Shown here piece after piece: positions 225-13,308 of a stretch of 64,000 nt of DNA; the stretch's first letter is position 1, and every line of letters starts with the position of its first letter. The position numbers and the translations under genes were made by a program. The DNA comes from a virus. Lineage: Duplodnaviria; Caudoviricetes. The stretch lies in the IMG/VR virus record IMGVR_UViG_3300011008_000999; one strand, given 5' to 3'. The notes beneath the pieces were generated by a model that saw only the letters and a list, made by a program, of their open reading frames with translations, had not been told where the DNA came from and did not search any database.

Positions 225-1418
225 TTAATCTGTACGAACTGCCTTCATTTGTTTCTTATTCTCGTACATTATGGCATCAGCTCTGACAAATACATCATGG
301 AATGAAGTATCTTTATCAGCTGAATATACTGCATGACCTGTAGCAGCTGATATATTTTCCCATTCATTATCTTTGCCAGTTTTAATTATAGAAGATCCTA
401 TATCATTTAGTAAGAAACTTAAAGTATCTACATTCTTGCCTGAAATAATTACAGCAAATTCGTCTCCACCTATTCTAAAACACTTACAACTAGTAAACAT
501 TGCTCTTATGTCATCTGCCAAGATTTTAAGCGCAATATCGCCTTTATCATGACCGTAAGTGTCATTCATCTTCTTAAGAAAGTTAAGATCAATTATAATA
601 AGTGAAAATTTAGCTATTCCATCTTTAATATCTCGATCTAATTGTTCTTCATACTTTTCAAATGCTGTTCTATTAGCTAATCCAGTCAAACCATCTATAT
701 ACATAATTTGTTCAGCACTTAAAGCCTTAGATGTCCAATATACAGATGATGATAGCATCATATATTCAGAAATATAAATAAAGCATATTATACCAAATAA
801 TGGAATAAATAACTTATTTGTTGGTAATACACCTAATGAATTTGCTATATAAGTTAGGACTGAAAAACTAATTAAAGACGAAATAGGTATAAGTAAATAG
901 TTCTTAATCTGTCCGTTAGCTGTTTCAAGCATTTTTGAAAAAGGTGTCTTTATAAATATAATATAGCATATAGTAAGTATACTTAATATTACTACTTTAA
1001 TTGACATAAAGAAAGTAATATTTTCATTTGTATATGGTCCATTAACAGCATCAAAATATTCTAATCGTCCACCAATTAGCTGATCTATAGTTCCGCAAAA
1101 TAAAAACGTAGCTACTACTATAATAAGAAGTGATGTAAAACAAATAAATATTGAATGTGATCTAGATTCTTTATATAACCAATGACTCACTACACATAAT
1201 CCTATACCATATATTATTATTGGAATTGCGTCATTCATTATAAAGAAACTATACCATAACATTGTTAGTGCTGCTACTATAAAACTAGAAGCGGCCCATA
1301 AAAGTACCGTAGACGATTTCTTATACTTAGGTGTCAGAGTAACTGCAGCTAATACTGACGCAAATATGAAATTTAGAGTACCACTAAGAGACCATAGTAC
1401 TATAATTGAAGTTTCCAT
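225..1418 (-). CDS. Membrane-anchored diguanylate cyclase (GGDEF)
   Basis: Multiple N-terminal TM helices; DGLTGLANR, DLNFLKKMNDTYGHDKGD, intact RIGGDEF. Confidence 0.93.
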   Translation of the reverse strand: METSIIVLWSLSGTLNFIFASVLAAVTLTPKYKKSSTVLLWAASSFIVAALTMLWYSFFIMNDAIPIIIYGIGLCVVSHWLYKESRSHSIFICFTSLLIIVVATFLFCGTIDQLIGGRLEYFDAVNGPYTNENITFFMSIKVVILSILTICYIIFIKTPFSKMLETANGQIKNYLLIPISSLISFSVLTYIANSLGVLPTNKLFIPLFGIICFIYISEYMMLSSSVYWTSKALSAEQIMYIDGLTGLANRTAFEKYEEQLDRDIKDGIAKFSLIIIDLNFLKKMNDTYGHDKGDIALKILADDIRAMFTSCKCFRIGGDEFAVIISGKNVDTLSFLLNDIGSSIIKTGKDNEWENISAATGHAVYSADKDTSFHDVFVRADAIMYENKKQMKAVRTD

Positions 1419-1433
1419 TTACGTTCCTCCGTG

Positions 1434-3299
1434 TTAAACTGCATTATGAGACGACAAGAACTCTAAGAAATTTTCCTTTGGTAAAGGCTTAGAGAAATAG
1501 AATCCTTGAATATACTCAATATCAAGTTCTGACATGGCATCTAACTGTTCTTTTGTTTCAATACCTTCAGATACAATATGAAGATTCATATTATGCATGA
1601 TTTGAGTCATTCCTTCTAATACATGCTTAACTTTCTTGTTGTTAAAATAACCTTGAGTAAAGGTATAATCAAACTTAATATTCTGTACAGGAAAATCTAC
1701 TAGATAATCTAAGTTAGATCGTCCGGTTCCAAAATCATCAAGTGAAAATGTTATACCTCTTTTAAGTAGTGCATTTATGTTACTAATAAGGTTATTTCTA
1801 TTACGATTTTGTACTGTTTCAGTAATCTCTAAATTTATCATTGATGGATCAATTTGGTACCTTTCAATAGTATCAATAATAAACTTAGCTGGATTCTCAA
1901 AATCAAACTGTGCAGCAGATAAATTAACTTCAATGCTATCAAGACCTAATTCTTTAGGATTATATTCAGCAATAAACTGACATACTTTTTCAAATATTTT
2001 CATACCTAAAGGAATAATCTGACCAGTTTCTTCTGAAATAGGAATAAATACTCCAGGTGAGATTATACTACCATCAGTATGTCTAATTCTAACTAGTGCT
2101 TCTGCTGCAGAGAACTTTCCAGTTTTTACATTATAAAAAGGCTGATAGAATACTTCTACTCTATCCTCATTAAGTGCGTCCTCAATAAGATCATGAATCT
2201 TATCATATTTACGCATCTTATTTATAAGTTCATCATTAACTTCTATAATTTCTTTAGAAGCATTTTCATAAGAATGAATAAAGTTAAAGAACTCTTCAGG
2301 ATTTAAGAAATCACTACTATTAGGAATAACTAAATATGAGCCTAATGCAGGAACATCTTTAACTGTAGCTGCCATTTCTCGAATCTTATCTAATTGAGAT
2401 CGCATTTTATTAGCATCTTCATAGATAATACAAAACATATCATCGTCTAATTTGAAGACTGGTTCAGATCCAAATGTGAGTAGTGCTTTTGCTGTTCTAA
2501 ATCTAACATTAGTCTTAAGGTCTATATCAACCATCTGTGAAATATAGTTAATTTTAATTGTAAATGCTGAGAACGACTTTTTGAATTTATATCGATCTTT
2601 TACAAAATTAACTAAACCAATATAGTTAAATACGTTAGTATCACTATCAAGATATACATTAGGATTTTCAAGTTGTGTATAAAGAATAATTACACTAAAT
2701 GCTGAAGCAAATCCTATTAATAAAAGTTCAGGAACTATAAACTGAATTATACCACAGATAAGCCAAATACTCTGCCACGTCATAATAATTCTATACTTCT
2801 TCTGCGTCATTTCTTTCTTTTTAAGAAGTCCTAAAAAAATGACAGTCAAAATAAAAATGACAGCCAATACATAAGCGACCAAAGTAGACGGTCCATACGA
2901 GTATGCTTGTCTGCCATCCATGGCAAATGATATTGGAAGTATTAATATCATCAGTTCTCCGAACGTAAAAATAAAATGCAATATACCTTTTATTGGTTTA
3001 TATCTTTTATCTACAAGTAATTCAGTCATTACATACACATATCCGAGATAACCTTGTAGTACAAGTGAAAAGATATACAGTTTACATATAATCTTTGTTA
3101 CAATTGGACTTAATCCACTATATGTTGAATGATATATACACGCAATAGATAATATATCAAGTACTAGCATTATCATACAACTATATAATGATCGCATGAA
3201 CAATATTCTATTTGTTAGATTCAGTTTCTTTTCTCTCATGAATAGCATATATATAATTAACACTACAAATAGAGAACCGCACTGTAATTCAATATTCAT
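1434..3299 (-). CDS. Membrane c-di-GMP phosphodiesterase (degenerate GGDEF + EAL)
   Basis: TM region; FYQP..AEALVR, EITE, DDFGTG, EGIET, QGFYFSKP; GGDEF motif degenerate (KLDDDMF). Confidence 0.93.
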   Translation of the reverse strand: MNIELQCGSLFVVLIIYMLFMREKKLNLTNRILFMRSLYSCMIMLVLDILSIACIYHSTYSGLSPIVTKIICKLYIFSLVLQGYLGYVYVMTELLVDKRYKPIKGILHFIFTFGELMILILPISFAMDGRQAYSYGPSTLVAYVLAVIFILTVIFLGLLKKKEMTQKKYRIIMTWQSIWLICGIIQFIVPELLLIGFASAFSVIILYTQLENPNVYLDSDTNVFNYIGLVNFVKDRYKFKKSFSAFTIKINYISQMVDIDLKTNVRFRTAKALLTFGSEPVFKLDDDMFCIIYEDANKMRSQLDKIREMAATVKDVPALGSYLVIPNSSDFLNPEEFFNFIHSYENASKEIIEVNDELINKMRKYDKIHDLIEDALNEDRVEVFYQPFYNVKTGKFSAAEALVRIRHTDGSIISPGVFIPISEETGQIIPLGMKIFEKVCQFIAEYNPKELGLDSIEVNLSAAQFDFENPAKFIIDTIERYQIDPSMINLEITETVQNRNRNNLISNINALLKRGITFSLDDFGTGRSNLDYLVDFPVQNIKFDYTFTQGYFNNKKVKHVLEGMTQIMHNMNLHIVSEGIETKEQLDAMSELDIEYIQGFYFSKPLPKENFLEFLSSHNAV

Positions 3300-3333
3300 A
3301 ATTATTTCTCCTACTGAGAATCCTCATCCATTT

Positions 3334-3366
3334 AAAAAAATGCGGTAGAATTAGGCTGCTACCGCT
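3334..3366 (-). terminator. Intrinsic terminator GCGGTAG-loop-CTACCGC + U-tract
   Basis: 7-bp GC-rich stem followed by A and a T-run on the minus strand; overlaps an alternative GGCTG/CAGCC hairpin. Confidence 0.75.
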
Positions 3367-3506
3367 CAGCCAGGGGGAGGATTACCAGATGACAAATTAT
3401 ACCTGATGGGTCTTGAACCCACACCTCTACGAATAGTGTACTACTTTATACGACAAGTATAACGACTTTCGTCGATTTGGAGGTATTTGTCGATGACATT
3501 CATCTT
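3334..3506 (-). ncRNA. Putative structured ncRNA/leader containing a tRNA-like domain with no anticodon loop (core 3397-3462)
   Basis: Bounded by conserved promoter (3513-3545) and terminator; acceptor ATACTTG/CAGGTAT, D arm GTAT-AAAGTA-GTAC, mini arm CTA-TTCG-TAG, variable AGGT, T arm GTGGG-TTCAAGA-CCCAT; adjacent CGAC-GAAA-GTCG hairpin. Confidence 0.7.
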
Positions 3507-3512
3507 ATTATC

Positions 3513-3545
3513 ATAATATCAAATAAGTTTGACCTTGTAAATAGT
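3513..3545 (-). promoter_or_regulatory. Conserved element promoter ACTATTTACA-N17-TATTAT
   Basis: Exact motif shared with 12 other intergenic sites. Confidence 0.8.
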
Positions 3546-3547
3546 TT

Positions 3548-4306
3548 TTAACGATATTTCTCTCTAACTTTTTCAAGATCTGATTTTACATAATATCTAT
3601 AAAACATTTCTGTTGAATAGTATTTATAAATATCATCTGTATAATTCTCGTCCTGATGAATACAATCTGGACAATCTATCCAGTGGTACTCAATAATATA
3701 TGTGCCTTCACCAAATATTTCATTTACAGGCGCACGTTCACCTTTAAGATTAGTAATCTCAAAGTCAGGTAAATCCATATATGGTGTATCTAGTGATAAT
3801 GTAGTTCCTAAAATCATATCGAAATAAGACTTTTCTATATCTCCGTTAAATGCACCAATAACTGTACCATCTTTAACTACAATATAAGAAGGAACCCAAT
3901 CAACTCCCAAATCATCTTTAATCCAATTTTCGAAATCTGATCGATGTTCAGGATTATCACACACATATACATGATCTTTTGGCATTATAGTTCTTGCATG
4001 CATATATATCATAAGACCAAAATATGCTACTACAAAAACCATAAAGAATGCAATAATTGGACCAAGTATTTTTAATACTTTATTCTTTTTCTTTGGCGGT
4101 TTTGTAGGTTCATCTACAACTTCTACTTCTGCGTCTAATAGTTCTGATTCTTCTTCAATTGAATTATTATCATCAATTGGTTCACTTGTAATTTCAGCAA
4201 CAGCTTCTTCTCTTGCTCTAGCTAGCATAGCATCAAGTTCATCTTTTGTAAGAGTAACTGTTTCATCATCAGTAGTAGAAGTAGCTAACTTTTCTTCATC
4301 AACCAT
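3548..4306 (-). CDS. Membrane-anchored thioredoxin-fold protein
   Basis: Acidic N-terminus, one TM helix, GVDWVPSYIVVKDG (cis-Pro loop) and CPDC motif. Confidence 0.55.
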   Translation of the reverse strand: MVDEEKLATSTTDDETVTLTKDELDAMLARAREEAVAEITSEPIDDNNSIEEESELLDAEVEVVDEPTKPPKKKNKVLKILGPIIAFFMVFVVAYFGLMIYMHARTIMPKDHVYVCDNPEHRSDFENWIKDDLGVDWVPSYIVVKDGTVIGAFNGDIEKSYFDMILGTTLSLDTPYMDLPDFEITNLKGERAPVNEIFGEGTYIIEYHWIDCPDCIHQDENYTDDIYKYYSTEMFYRYYVKSDLEKVREKYR

Positions 4307-7243: not shown

Positions 7244-8353
7244 TTAGCCTTCAAGGCCTTCGAGAATGGCATCAATATCAAGCTCGTCACCATACCATCT
7301 TTCAGATGAAACAACGTCACATGAAATAGGAATAGTAAGTCTTGGTCTTGCTGCAGTTTCCATATCATTTGCGAAACGACCTTTTACATATCTAGCATAT
7401 CTTAAAGGTGTTTCAATAAGAATTTCATCATGAACAGGAATAATTGCATAAGTCTTTCTCTTCTGAAGTTCTTCGTCATTTCTAATTTTAATAAGTGCTA
7501 ACTTACTCATATCAGCAGCAGATCCCTGAACTCGAGAGTTAATAATCTGTCTACTAGCGTTGGCAATCTTATTTCCATTATCAATTACTAAGATTCTTTC
7601 TTTTGTCTTTAACTCGTTCACATAGTTAAATCTAGACTTCCACCACATATTTGTAAGCTTTTCCGTATACTTCTTAACATCAGATTCAGGTACTTTCATA
7701 GAATCGTCAATATTACCATCCTCATCAAGATAGTGGAATTCAAATGTAGGAAGGTTGTATTCAGGAAGTCTTCTCTTTCTACCCCAAAGAGTAGTAACAT
7801 ATCCATGTTCTCTAACCATCTGAGAAGACTCGCGTTCAAATATTTTGATTCTAGGAAATGCATCATATACAGAATTCTTAATCTCTTTTGCTTCTTCAGG
7901 TGTACAACCTAACTGTTCTGCAATAGAGTTTTCACCTCTACCATACATAATACCTAACAGAATCTTTTTAGCCTGACCTCGGTATTCTTTACCTTCCTTA
8001 AATACATCAGTCTCACCATCAGATAATTTATCATAATCATAATCTTCAGGATTTATGTCTGAGTAATCGAGATCTTCAAACTTTTCTTTTCCATCATCCT
8101 GACCATTCTTAAGTAATGCATAAACCCATTTACCATCAGAATTTTGTTTTATAGGACAATTCTTAGGAAAATGTTCAAGACATTTCTTATAAGGTCGTCC
8201 AAAAGAAATAGCAGCGATCTCAACATAAAGGTCTTTACCATCCATATATGCCTGAAGCATACCAGGATCCTCACATAACTGAGTAAGTACACGAGGTTCC
8301 TGAGCAGAATAGTCTGCACCTTGAATGATTCGTCTTGTTCTTGCTTTAATCAT
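7244..8353 (-). CDS. polA: Family A DNA polymerase, C-terminal fragment (motifs A, B, C)
   Basis: ADYSAQEPR, RGQAKKILLGIMYG (Leu at the E. coli F762 position), NSRVQGSAAD, VHDE; own RBS AGGAG. Confidence 0.92.
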   Translation of the reverse strand: MIKARTRRIIQGADYSAQEPRVLTQLCEDPGMLQAYMDGKDLYVEIAAISFGRPYKKCLEHFPKNCPIKQNSDGKWVYALLKNGQDDGKEKFEDLDYSDINPEDYDYDKLSDGETDVFKEGKEYRGQAKKILLGIMYGRGENSIAEQLGCTPEEAKEIKNSVYDAFPRIKIFERESSQMVREHGYVTTLWGRKRRLPEYNLPTFEFHYLDEDGNIDDSMKVPESDVKKYTEKLTNMWWKSRFNYVNELKTKERILVIDNGNKIANASRQIINSRVQGSAADMSKLALIKIRNDEELQKRKTYAIIPVHDEILIETPLRYARYVKGRFANDMETAARPRLTIPISCDVVSSERWYGDELDIDAILEGLEG

Positions 8354-8357
8354 ATCA

Positions 8358-9860
8358 CTATACTCCTATAAGTACTTTGAGTTCTTTAACTTTTACTGCT
8401 TTAACAACTGATCCATCAGCAAGAGTATCACCAACTTTAACAAGTTCAACCCACTGCCAAGATCCATCAGCCATTTCTACTTCTTCACAACGATCGAAGA
8501 TATATGCTCCATCATCTCTCTTATCTACATCTCTATATGTAGTCTGACCAATGAACATCTTACGAATATCTTCATTATGTGAAGGAATGTTTTGTAAGTT
8601 AAGAGGATCAGATGAACTCATACGACCAGTCTTAGCACCCATAGAATTAAAATGAGTATGTACACGACCATCAGTATGAGTAATTCCAGGAATATTATCT
8701 ACATAAGTAGAAGTAATCTTCTGAGCAGCTCTATAGTCTAAGATATGTTTAGCTATAGGATATTCTTTTGCCCAAATATCCATTACATCTGCATCAGTAC
8801 AACGATCTTTCTTACCTGGAATAGGTTTACATTTAAGAATATCATAAAATAGAATTGCAAGCTGAGTTGAAGATCCAATATTAGGTGGCATATTAAATAA
8901 CTTATCTGAATGAGTGGCATTATATTTACCAATTTCAGTTTCATGTGTCATAATCTCTTTTATACACTCATCTAATGCATTCTGAAGATTATTGTGGTAT
9001 TTCTCATGAAGAGTTGCAAGGTATTCAGTATCAACTGCAACACCTGCATCTTCAAGATCAACAATAACGTCAACCATTGGAATTTCAATATTTCTAAATA
9101 ACCAGTTAAGGTCTTTCATATCAGGTCTTTCAGACTCAATATAATTACGCTGAAACTCATAAAGCTCATAAGTATCAATAGCATCATGAGCTGCATAAAG
9201 ATACGCAAATTCAATAGGAATATAGTTAAATGATACCTGACCAAACAAATCTGAGAATGTCTGCTCATCACTATGGCTAATATATTTTCCATGTAAGTAC
9301 TTCAAACCGTGAGGTTCATTCTCATTAAGTAAGTGTCCACCTAAAAGTGTGTCCCAATAACAACCAAGTCTAATACCAACCTGATTTTTAATTACTCGAA
9401 TATCGAATTGAGCATTATGATAAATAACATCTGCAGTTAATTCTGCTAATACTTCTCTTGATTCTTCCTCTGTTAACTGCTCATCAATTCTAATATCTGA
9501 GAAATAATTTACATGATTAATTGGTACATACGTTGCAGGTTCACCTGGAAAGTATAAACACAAACCAACAATCTTATCTACTAAAGGATTAAGACCCATA
9601 GTCTCAGTATCGATTGCAATCTTACCATGTTTATTTGCTTTCTGTATATACTGTCTAAAAACATCCTTATCTGTAATAACCTGATACTGATCCCTAAACT
9701 GACCAAGATGATTATCTACATCTTGTCGAATTTTCTCAATAGTATCAATGATGTTATTACCTTTAGGAGCAGTTTTCTTAGCCGATTTAATTTTCGCAGC
9801 TAACTCTTTGTCTTGCAATGCACTTAGAGTTTCTGACTTAAATTTAATTGGTAATGGCAT
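8358..9860 (-). CDS. polA: Family A DNA polymerase, N-terminal fragment (3'-5' exonuclease + thumb) with Hint-like C-terminal tail
   Basis: AIDTET, HNAQFD, YAAHD, TGRMSS..PLNLQNIP, IRKMF; no 5'-3' exonuclease; ends TAG TGA. Confidence 0.92.
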   Translation of the reverse strand: MPLPIKFKSETLSALQDKELAAKIKSAKKTAPKGNNIIDTIEKIRQDVDNHLGQFRDQYQVITDKDVFRQYIQKANKHGKIAIDTETMGLNPLVDKIVGLCLYFPGEPATYVPINHVNYFSDIRIDEQLTEEESREVLAELTADVIYHNAQFDIRVIKNQVGIRLGCYWDTLLGGHLLNENEPHGLKYLHGKYISHSDEQTFSDLFGQVSFNYIPIEFAYLYAAHDAIDTYELYEFQRNYIESERPDMKDLNWLFRNIEIPMVDVIVDLEDAGVAVDTEYLATLHEKYHNNLQNALDECIKEIMTHETEIGKYNATHSDKLFNMPPNIGSSTQLAILFYDILKCKPIPGKKDRCTDADVMDIWAKEYPIAKHILDYRAAQKITSTYVDNIPGITHTDGRVHTHFNSMGAKTGRMSSSDPLNLQNIPSHNEDIRKMFIGQTTYRDVDKRDDGAYIFDRCEEVEMADGSWQWVELVKVGDTLADGSVVKAVKVKELKVLIGV

Positions 9861-12402: not shown

Positions 12403-13308
12403 TCATACTATTAACCTCGCTATGATGATATTCTTAGGTGAATCATCATATCTAATATCCTGAAGTGTAGCCAGTAGTCTCTCAACTAAATTAAGATCTG
12501 CTCTCTTAGCAATACAATAATCAAGTAACTGACGAGTAAACTGATGAAGTTCATATCCAGAATTATACACATTCTCAATAAGTTCAATGATCTTATTAGT
12601 GTCTGAATTATTATAAGCTTCACATATATCTGCAAATATGTCAATAGATACCATATTAAGCACTTTACGTACACTATCTACAGATAAATCATCATACAAC
12701 AGACACTTATCAAGATTAGTTAAAGCCTGTCTAAGACTTCCTCTTGCAGATTTGACTAAATACTTAAGTGCTTCATCATCCATTTCAATAGATTCAAGTT
12801 TCATAATAGCCTTAAGTCTTTCAGCAATTCCTTTATTAGAAATAGGTAAGAAGTCAAGTCTTTGCACTCTACTCATAATAGTATCAGGAATCTTCTGTGT
12901 ATCAGTTGTACAAAAAACAAATATTGTACTTGGAAGATGCTCTTCAAGCACAATAAGTAAAGATGACCATCCGTCTTTAGTAATACAATGGCACTCGTCT
13001 AAAATAACTACTTTATAGTCATGAAGTAATGGTTTAATTCTCGCCTTCTCAACAATCTCTTTGATCTCGGCTACACCGCCATGAGTGGCACAGTCAAGTT
13101 CAATAATTTCACCATTTATCTTCTTAGCAAATATTTTTGCACAAGTAGTCTTTCCACAACCAGCATGTCCAGCAAATAACTGAGCATGACTGAACTTATT
13201 CTTTTTAATCTGATTTGTCAATACTCTAGTACACACTTCTTGATCGCATACATCTTCAAATTCAGTAGGACGATACTTATTTGCTAGAGTCATAAGATCT
13301 TCTGGCAT
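12403..13308 (-). CDS. dnaX: DNA polymerase III gamma/tau clamp loader ATPase
   Basis: LANKYRP..FEDV, GHAGCGKTT, ILDECH, TTDTQKIPDTIMSR, GSLRQAL; start MPEDL after RBS. Confidence 0.92.
   Translation of the reverse strand: MPEDLMTLANKYRPTEFEDVCDQEVCTRVLTNQIKKNKFSHAQLFAGHAGCGKTTCAKIFAKKINGEIIELDCATHGGVAEIKEIVEKARIKPLLHDYKVVILDECHCITKDGWSSLLIVLEEHLPSTIFVFCTTDTQKIPDTIMSRVQRLDFLPISNKGIAERLKAIMKLESIEMDDEALKYLVKSARGSLRQALTNLDKCLLYDDLSVDSVRKVLNMVSIDIFADICEAYNNSDTNKIIELIENVYNSGYELHQFTRQLLDYCIAKRADLNLVERLLATLQDIRYDDSPKNIIIARLIV

Follow-up and report, generated by a model that had tools for sequence, protein, structure and literature searches.

Introduction

The t-elements of plant mitochondria are tRNA-like processing signals. 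The CI RNA of P4 is a mobile-element antisense RNA matured by RNase P, and in both CI and C4 the antisense segments form part of the mature, cloverleaf-like RNA and are directed at long, specific targets. The C4 antisense RNA of phages P1 and P7 is described as an RNase P substrate (PMC4919922). mascRNA and menRNA are the tRNA-like processing signals of MALAT1 and NEAT1 (PMC8457004), and the tRNA-like domain of the YrlA bacterial Y RNAs keeps D, T and acceptor features without decoding (PMC4201824). Streptococcal csRNAs combine an unpaired anti-Shine–Dalgarno (anti-SD) sequence with a CAU anti-start, and a terminator ends the small RNA (PMC3091779). CPK-1 pseudoknots have an S2 of 6–7 bp, an L1 of 1–2 nt and no inter-stem loop (PMC3835772).

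The RNA gene described here was found in a 64,000-nucleotide window, the whole stretch of DNA that was analysed. By analogy, the RNA appears to work most like a mascRNA-type processing signal combined with csRNA-type blockers, and the C4 and CI phage RNAs are its nearest mobile-element analogues. Like mascRNA and menRNA (PMC8457004), and like the t-elements, it holds a non-decoding cloverleaf with a reduced anticodon arm inside a longer RNA; unlike all of these, it belongs to a bacterial element, its flanks rather than a long transcript look like the products, and its cleavage is putative. It shares the csRNA features listed above, whereas csRNAs lack a tRNA-like domain, are CiaR-controlled and chromosomal, and gave no sequence match. 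Like C4 and CI it would be a mobile-element antisense RNA, with RNase P maturation only proposed here; unlike theirs, its antisense segments lie on either side of the core and are complements of start sites in general, and no Rfam match was obtained. The YrlA likeness extends to the retained D, T and acceptor features, but the present RNA is not permuted and has no adjacent Ro60. Its predicted pseudoknot (S2 of 7 bp, 1-nt L1, no inter-stem loop) resembles CPK-1 examples such as phage T2 gene 32 but, unlike that one, lies at the 3′ end before a U-tract.

Results and discussion

The window is contained in a 331,944-bp circular record (G000) which, like its 394-kb relative G001, is catalogued as a complete virus. 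As the terminase families PF03237 and PF04466 were found in neither genome, the replicon is termed an element, not a phage. The RNA gene resides on a 330–440 kb rumen element (ruminant guts) of unclear type, and bovine gut runs contain 150–360 nt pieces of it at high identity. A replication gene block flanks the RNA gene on one side and a tRNA/tmRNA cluster on the other; the cluster, of about 40 tRNAs and a tmRNA, begins 4.4 kb downstream. The element encodes RNase Z, above the NCBIfam cut-off, and an enzyme of the PolyA_pol/CCA-adding family. The features of the locus, in window coordinates, are as follows.

3548–4306, minus strand: protein of 252 aa with no assigned function; ends at the promoter and was the synteny anchor for collecting homologues
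3513–3549, minus strand: promoter of sigma-70 type, a member of the element's repeated family (A-tract, −35, extended −10)
3492–3504, minus strand: 5′ hairpin GATGA/TCATC over the anti-AUG of module A, only partly conserved
3477–3498, minus strand: module A, anti-AUG (GUCAU) and anti-SD (AAAUACCUCCAA), 6 copies
3463–3476, minus strand: small variable hairpin before the core, CGAC-GAAA-GTCG in the window and GGCT/AGCC in others
3398–3460, minus strand: tRNA-like core, 63 nt (63–68 in homologues), from the alignment of copies and covariation
3460–3454/3405–3399, minus strand: acceptor stem, 7 bp, then U8
3451–3438, minus strand: D arm with 4-bp stem
3436–3427, minus strand: truncated anticodon hairpin CTA-TTCG-TAG
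3426–3423, minus strand: variable loop AGGT
3422–3406, minus strand: T arm
3398, minus strand: discriminator A, CCA not encoded
3374–3396, minus strand: module B, anti-AUG (GYCAUCU) and anti-SD (AUCCUC), all 12 copies
3342–3371, minus strand: 3′ H-type pseudoknot or terminator (S1 3371–3367/3358–3354, 1-nt loop, S2 3365–3359/3348–3342)
3334–3340, minus strand: U-tract, the 3′ end predicted from the sequence
3314–3325, minus strand: SD-like GAGGATT stretch with complementarity to module B, immediately before the SD of the EAL gene itself (3312–3308)
1434–3299, minus strand: membrane EAL-domain protein, ~52% identical to Lachnospiraceae proteins; absent in one lineage
225–1418, minus strand: membrane GGDEF protein, second gene of the putative passenger operon

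Several other features of the element and its relatives were recorded. In a distant relative, a ROOL RNA (L009:1071-1658) closely follows the anchor gene on its downstream side. G000 has tRNA-like genes with long insertions at C1:155600-156000 (L063 ~12600-13000), near 157100-157300 and at 171170; ACAGC motifs occur inside some of them, and in L014 ACAGCAA repeats of a similar kind are found ahead of a DUF2828 gene, DUF2828 being present in G001 and absent from G000. ARAGORN called a tRNA with a TTA (ochre) anticodon at G001:C1:114279-114350. A Hint-like tail splits polA at window positions 7244–9860 and is similar to a free-standing Hint-domain gene (L064:1559-2053) located between a sigma factor gene that is split and the best candidate for module B.

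Promoter and extent of the gene

The promoter, said in the sequence-only reading to be conserved, does precede every homologue. On the minus strand it comprises a −35 TTTACA (3541–3536), 17 nt of spacing and a −10 TATTAT (3518–3513) with an extended TG, and its family has 51 sense-strand copies, including this one, against one antisense copy. Transcription is predicted to start at about 3506. The locus may be modelled as a stand-alone small RNA gene of ~170 nt (3506 to 3334) heading the element's tRNA island, a description that is about evenly balanced between right and wrong. Among assembled contigs, one of 155 nt (run X9) spans 3373–3526 at a depth of 2.6; it extends upstream of the predicted start, so it may derive from DNA or read-through and is neutral as to expression.

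A second motif found genome-wide in G000 only on the sense strand, RAAGARCTATTTA followed by an AT-rich block, has 23 copies and 0 antisense, similarly in G001, and is probably a second promoter class. Examples are at C1:92332, 99068, 142904 and 143174, and a GRATG..GAAAAATGAC leader with a hairpin often comes next.

Homologues and conservation

Homologues were collected using the upstream 252-aa gene and the EAL gene as anchors, giving the set L001, L010, L013, L016, L019, L017/L018, L011, L012, L032-L034 and L037-L040. Twelve distinct copies were aligned: the window copy and 11 homologues from related elements. In this comparison, proposed as a check in the sequence-only reading, 99.7% of cells pair, against only 26–48% in slid-partner controls, and six pairs change on both sides (three in the acceptor stem, two in the T stem and one in S1), although the copies represent only about four lineages and independent covariation events are few. 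The fold z of the window copy is −2.25.

These results bear on one rival explanation, a decayed pseudo-tRNA beside an ordinary terminator, with an anti-SD likeness arising by chance. The RNA does sit at the edge of a tRNA island, and a tRNA-Gln occupies the same slot in a distant relative (L006). However, the extent of pairing and its compensatory changes largely refute decay, the anticodon stem varies in pairs, and the 3′ module has hardly changed while identity in the upstream protein has fallen to ~50%. Decay is therefore considered extremely unlikely.

Neither complete genome (G000, G001) holds a paralogue. The RNA model had no match in the 151 Lachnospiraceae genomes searched, GenBank phages gave none and plasmids only chance 25-mers; this is not proof of absence. 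DNA pattern matches in L002-L004, L020-L030 and L035-L036 were due to chance, as they fell within unrelated genes or at their starts. On the RNA stretch nothing was found by ARAGORN or by Rfam at E up to 10, from which a weak match at best had been expected. On these comparisons the family is new, without an Rfam entry.

The tRNA-like core

The cloverleaf proposed from the sequence alone, with its 7-bp acceptor stem, U8, 4-bp D stem, AGGT variable loop and T arm, lies at the coordinates listed and is conserved by covariation. The T arm had been called canonical: its stem is kept, but its loop varies (TTCAAGA, TGCAAGA, TGCAGGA, AGCAAGA) and has the canonical form in some copies only. The invariant bases are U8, A14, A15, A21, U48, C56 and one G of the D loop, which in established tRNA structure are the core and elbow contacts.

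The anticodon arm is always a 3–5 bp hairpin with a 3–4 nt loop (12/12 copies). Its loop is the least conserved part of the RNA, with seven different sequences, and no copy (0/12) has the 7-nt loop of a normal anticodon arm, which in relatives would have pointed to a simple pseudo-tRNA. As the arm is short and its loop variable, the core can neither decode nor serve as a decoy for anticodon nucleases, and the latter suggestion is not supported. A tRNA mimic without decoding, as first described, is thus established as a conserved fold recognised by neither ARAGORN nor Rfam. The absence of CCA, also pointed out earlier, is real but not distinctive: it is the local norm, because 0/40 tRNA genes of G000 and 0/39 of G001 encode CCA and the element encodes both RNase Z and an enzyme of the CCA-adding family. 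When four variants of the D arm were compared with the 79 tRNAs of the two genomes, tRNA-Gly scored best for each, which suggests that the ancestor of the core was a tRNA, likely tRNA-Gly.

By the tests run, the RNA is not a tRNA, tmRNA, Y RNA, HDV-like ribozyme or known riboswitch. It has the 7-bp acceptor, the D stem and the 5-bp T stem with 7-nt loop of a canonical tRNA, but a 5-bp anticodon stem with 7-nt loop is absent in 12/12 copies and RF00005 did not match. A tag ORF with a tRNA-Ala-like acceptor end is lacking, ARAGORN and Rfam gave no tmRNA match, and the element has a separate tmRNA, upholding the earlier remark that tmRNA features are absent. As for YrlA, neither genome has Ro60, and the GNCGAAN(0-1)G motif occurs in only 3/11 copies. 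The nested double pseudoknot (P1, P3, L3) of a theta/HDV-like ribozyme was found in 0/11 copies with a simple descriptor. The c-di-GMP-I/II riboswitch was rejected since its aptamer model was unmatched and the regulated gene is not always downstream.

The flanking modules

The sequence-only reading overlooked two anti-SD/anti-AUG modules. Module B lies directly 3′ of the core, and its complement has the order SD, spacer, AUG; both blocks, anti-SD and anti-AUG, stay constant and only the spacer between them varies, and the module is among the best-conserved parts of the RNA. Its conservation as a start-site complement is established. Module A occurs in the leader of 6 copies and is absent in the L011 and L017 lineages. 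The anti-SD of module B is mostly unpaired in window-type copies (0.69–0.82 in 5/6) and unpaired at 0.39–0.74 in the L011 lineage; the accessibility of module A is variable. Apart from this variability, the unpaired anti-SD and anti-AUG at start-site spacing are those of an anti-TIR small RNA.

The 5′ hairpin and the outer stem noted earlier fared less well. GATGA/TCATC is present in the window copy, but its exact form occurs in only 3/11 copies, and the outer GACAAAT/ATTTGTC stem is complete in 1/11, the window copy alone. In the L017 lineage another structured leader stands in place of module A (L017:3725-3800), and an extra GACAAT/ATTGTC hairpin lies between core and module B (L017:3880-3901). 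Peptides on the opposite strand were rejected, the ORFs started by the module complements not being conserved (4 to >41 aa, shifting frames).

Alternatively, the RNA could be an unprocessed tRNA mimic whose elbow binds a protein, such as a defence or tRNA-binding factor, or the ribosome, its C-rich stretches being protein sites or mRNA tethers. The acceptor stem is lengthened to 9–10 bp by invariant leader and trailer bases, the T and D loops are non-canonical and no module B target was found, all of which would suit such a mimic. It leaves unexplained, however, two modules with CAU and CCUC at SD-to-start spacing; Ro60/TROVE is in neither genome, DUF2828 only in the relative G001, and the anticodon loop is not conserved. 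This explanation is judged unlikely, though it deserves to be kept in mind.

The 3′ end

The helix GCGGTAG/CTACCGC followed by the U-tract at 3340–3334 was correctly identified from the sequence, but its supposed competition with GGCTG/CAGCC was a misreading: the two use different nucleotides and are compatible as one H-type pseudoknot. With an S1 of 5 bp, an L1 of 1 nt, an S2 of 7 bp and no inter-stem loop, the predicted structure falls within CPK-1 by geometry alone. A terminator scan with a loop limit of 8 did not call this 3′ end. One S1 pair occurs as GC, GU and AU, and S2 is invariant except for one broken cell. Between module B and the S1 5′ strand, an alternative GYCA/UGRC pairing is kept at 97.9% and is worth only −0.5 kcal/mol; some rearrangement of S1 and module B is possible, and a ligand switch is unnecessary to explain it.

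This pairing is one of the arguments for a cis switch, in which module B would pair just past the U-tract and so set termination or translation of the following sequence. A complement of module B lies ≤60 nt downstream in 10/11 copies (0–8/300 shuffles); in the EAL-less lineage the match is 11 bp long. On the other hand, the two lineages match different halves of module B, the match in the EAL-less lineage overlaps a second promoter motif with no gene downstream, and the complement in L017 is not significant (49/300 shuffles). The alternative stem is weak, and a complement beyond the U-tract cannot act before termination. A cis switch is distinctly unlikely.

The EAL-GGDEF operon

The RNA, with both 3′ helices complete, is present in L011, L012, L032, L037, L039 and L040, where promoters and not EAL/GGDEF genes lie downstream; in L011 and L012 these promoters lead to a GOLLD-like RNA and tRNAs. 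As the L011 lineage has the complete RNA without EAL/GGDEF, the c-di-GMP genes are not what the RNA is kept for. Its independence from the operon is established, and attenuation of EAL-GGDEF as a primary role, as first suggested, is unsupported.

A riboswitch or attenuator responding to c-di-GMP, or to another ligand, would be suggested by the 35 nt that separate the RNA from EAL-GGDEF, with no other promoter seen (7 copies), and by the compact pseudoknot adjoining the U-tract. Against it stand the full conservation of the RNA where no EAL/GGDEF gene is downstream, two 3′ helices that are not mutually exclusive, and the lack of a match to the model in the 151 genomes of the Lachnospiraceae, the family of the closest EAL relatives. 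No Rfam riboswitch matched at E up to 10, in agreement with the earlier view that the RNA does not resemble a c-di-GMP riboswitch. This possibility is very unlikely; gene silencing, not c-di-GMP sensing, is most likely the RNA's role.

The closest matches of the EAL protein outside the element's relatives are Lachnospiraceae proteins. No separate promoter was seen for its gene, which is probably read through from the promoter of the RNA. In six EAL-bearing copies the duplex of module B with the SD-like stretch amounts to −14 to −20 kcal/mol, matched by 0–8/300 shuffles. From its sequence and position, this stretch is read here as a decoy that would protect EAL translation in read-through transcripts.

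The divergent GOLLD-like RNA (L011:6649-7082, also in L012 and L039) scores 86 bits (E 1e-22) against a gathering score of 150; it sits between the element and a tRNA-Pro, with further structured-looking sequence upstream.

Candidate targets

Both modules were scored against all predicted start sites of G000 and G001. For module A, one 95-aa orphan gene (G000:223694) and its orthologue take first place in their respective genomes (−24.2 and −25.3 kcal/mol); next come a DUF932 gene and further small genes that have GGAGGTATT sites. Of the GGAGGTATT genes, 6/12 and 6/14 lie just behind the promoter family, compared with 39/421 and 47/511 genes overall. The top-5 energy of module A was reached by 1/100 and 3/100 shuffles that kept the CAT and CCTCC cores, and 5/250 shuffles did as well in an orthologue-paired test. 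Against the element's own GGAGGUAUU start sites module A showed a modest excess over shuffles (p ~0.02–0.03, uncorrected across several tests), which may partly reflect GGAGGUAUU being the genome's commonest strong start site.

With module B, an orthologous 86-aa gene comes first in one genome and second in the other, but against the element's start sites the module is no better than shuffles (25–119/250). No family was found for the candidate target proteins. Among 301 Lachnospiraceae genomes no recurring host target was found; complements of the modules occur in 13 and 20 of them, in unrelated genes. Immediately upstream of the candidate ranked first for module A is the element's RNase Z gene (L065:1190-2482).

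Proposed mechanism

It is proposed, as the preferred reading, that a tRNA-derived scaffold and cutting signal carries antisense translation repressors, a proposal that may equally well prove right or wrong. Transcription would run from the upstream promoter (~3506) to the U-tract (3334), and the core would be a tRNA descendant that has lost decoding and been retained for its shape. By pairing with target mRNAs across the SD and the start codon, the modules would keep the 30S subunit from binding, the likeliest targets of module A being the element's promoter-proximal orphan genes with GGAGGUAUU sites. The EAL-GGDEF operon would be a passenger expressed by read-through, with the SD-like decoy absorbing module B in the long transcript.

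An RNase P/Z-processed small RNA, already considered in the sequence-only reading, is plausible. RNase P and RNase Z measure from the tRNA elbow (PMC4919913), and the core has the 7-bp acceptor and 5-bp T stem, the invariant D-loop G and C56 that they would use. Cutting is argued for by the 7-bp acceptor register and the invariant U-1 and elbow. Against it are G55 in the T loop of many copies, the single D-loop G and the first pair A1-U72, which is not the preferred pair; leader bases U-1 and U-2 pair with positions 73–74, and this could also hinder cutting. In MALAT1, however, leader-trailer pairing that extends the acceptor stem promotes RNase P cutting, so such pairing need not block it (PMC8457004).

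Host RNase P would cut at 3461/3460, and A3398 would be the last base before the RNase Z cut, made by the element's enzyme as on its CCA-less tRNAs; RNase P is assigned to the host, no RNase P type B RNA having been found in the element. This would release a ~45-nt 5′ piece with module A and a ~63-nt 3′ piece with module B and a pseudoknot cap. Alternatively, the core would stay attached as a nuclease-resistant scaffold. In Firmicutes a freed 5′ end is exposed to RNase J1, which would favour the core being kept as a protective cap. In its strongest form, offered tentatively and more doubtful than the general proposal, a tRNA gene would have been domesticated as the spacer of a two-guide antisense cassette, host RNase P and the element's RNase Z freeing two start-site blockers, one of which would silence a class of the element's early promoter-proximal genes via the ribosome-binding sequence they have in common.

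Conclusions

The proposal specifies where the RNA should be cut and names its top target, and is therefore cheap to test. The family joins two known devices, a tRNA-like fold for processing or stability and csRNA-like start-site blockers. The two-guide cassette, if true, would mean that bacteria have a natural equivalent of engineered tRNA-guide arrays. Should the mechanism hold, it would show a route from a tRNA gene to a regulatory small RNA, and a large mobile element could silence a gene class via a shared ribosome-binding sequence.
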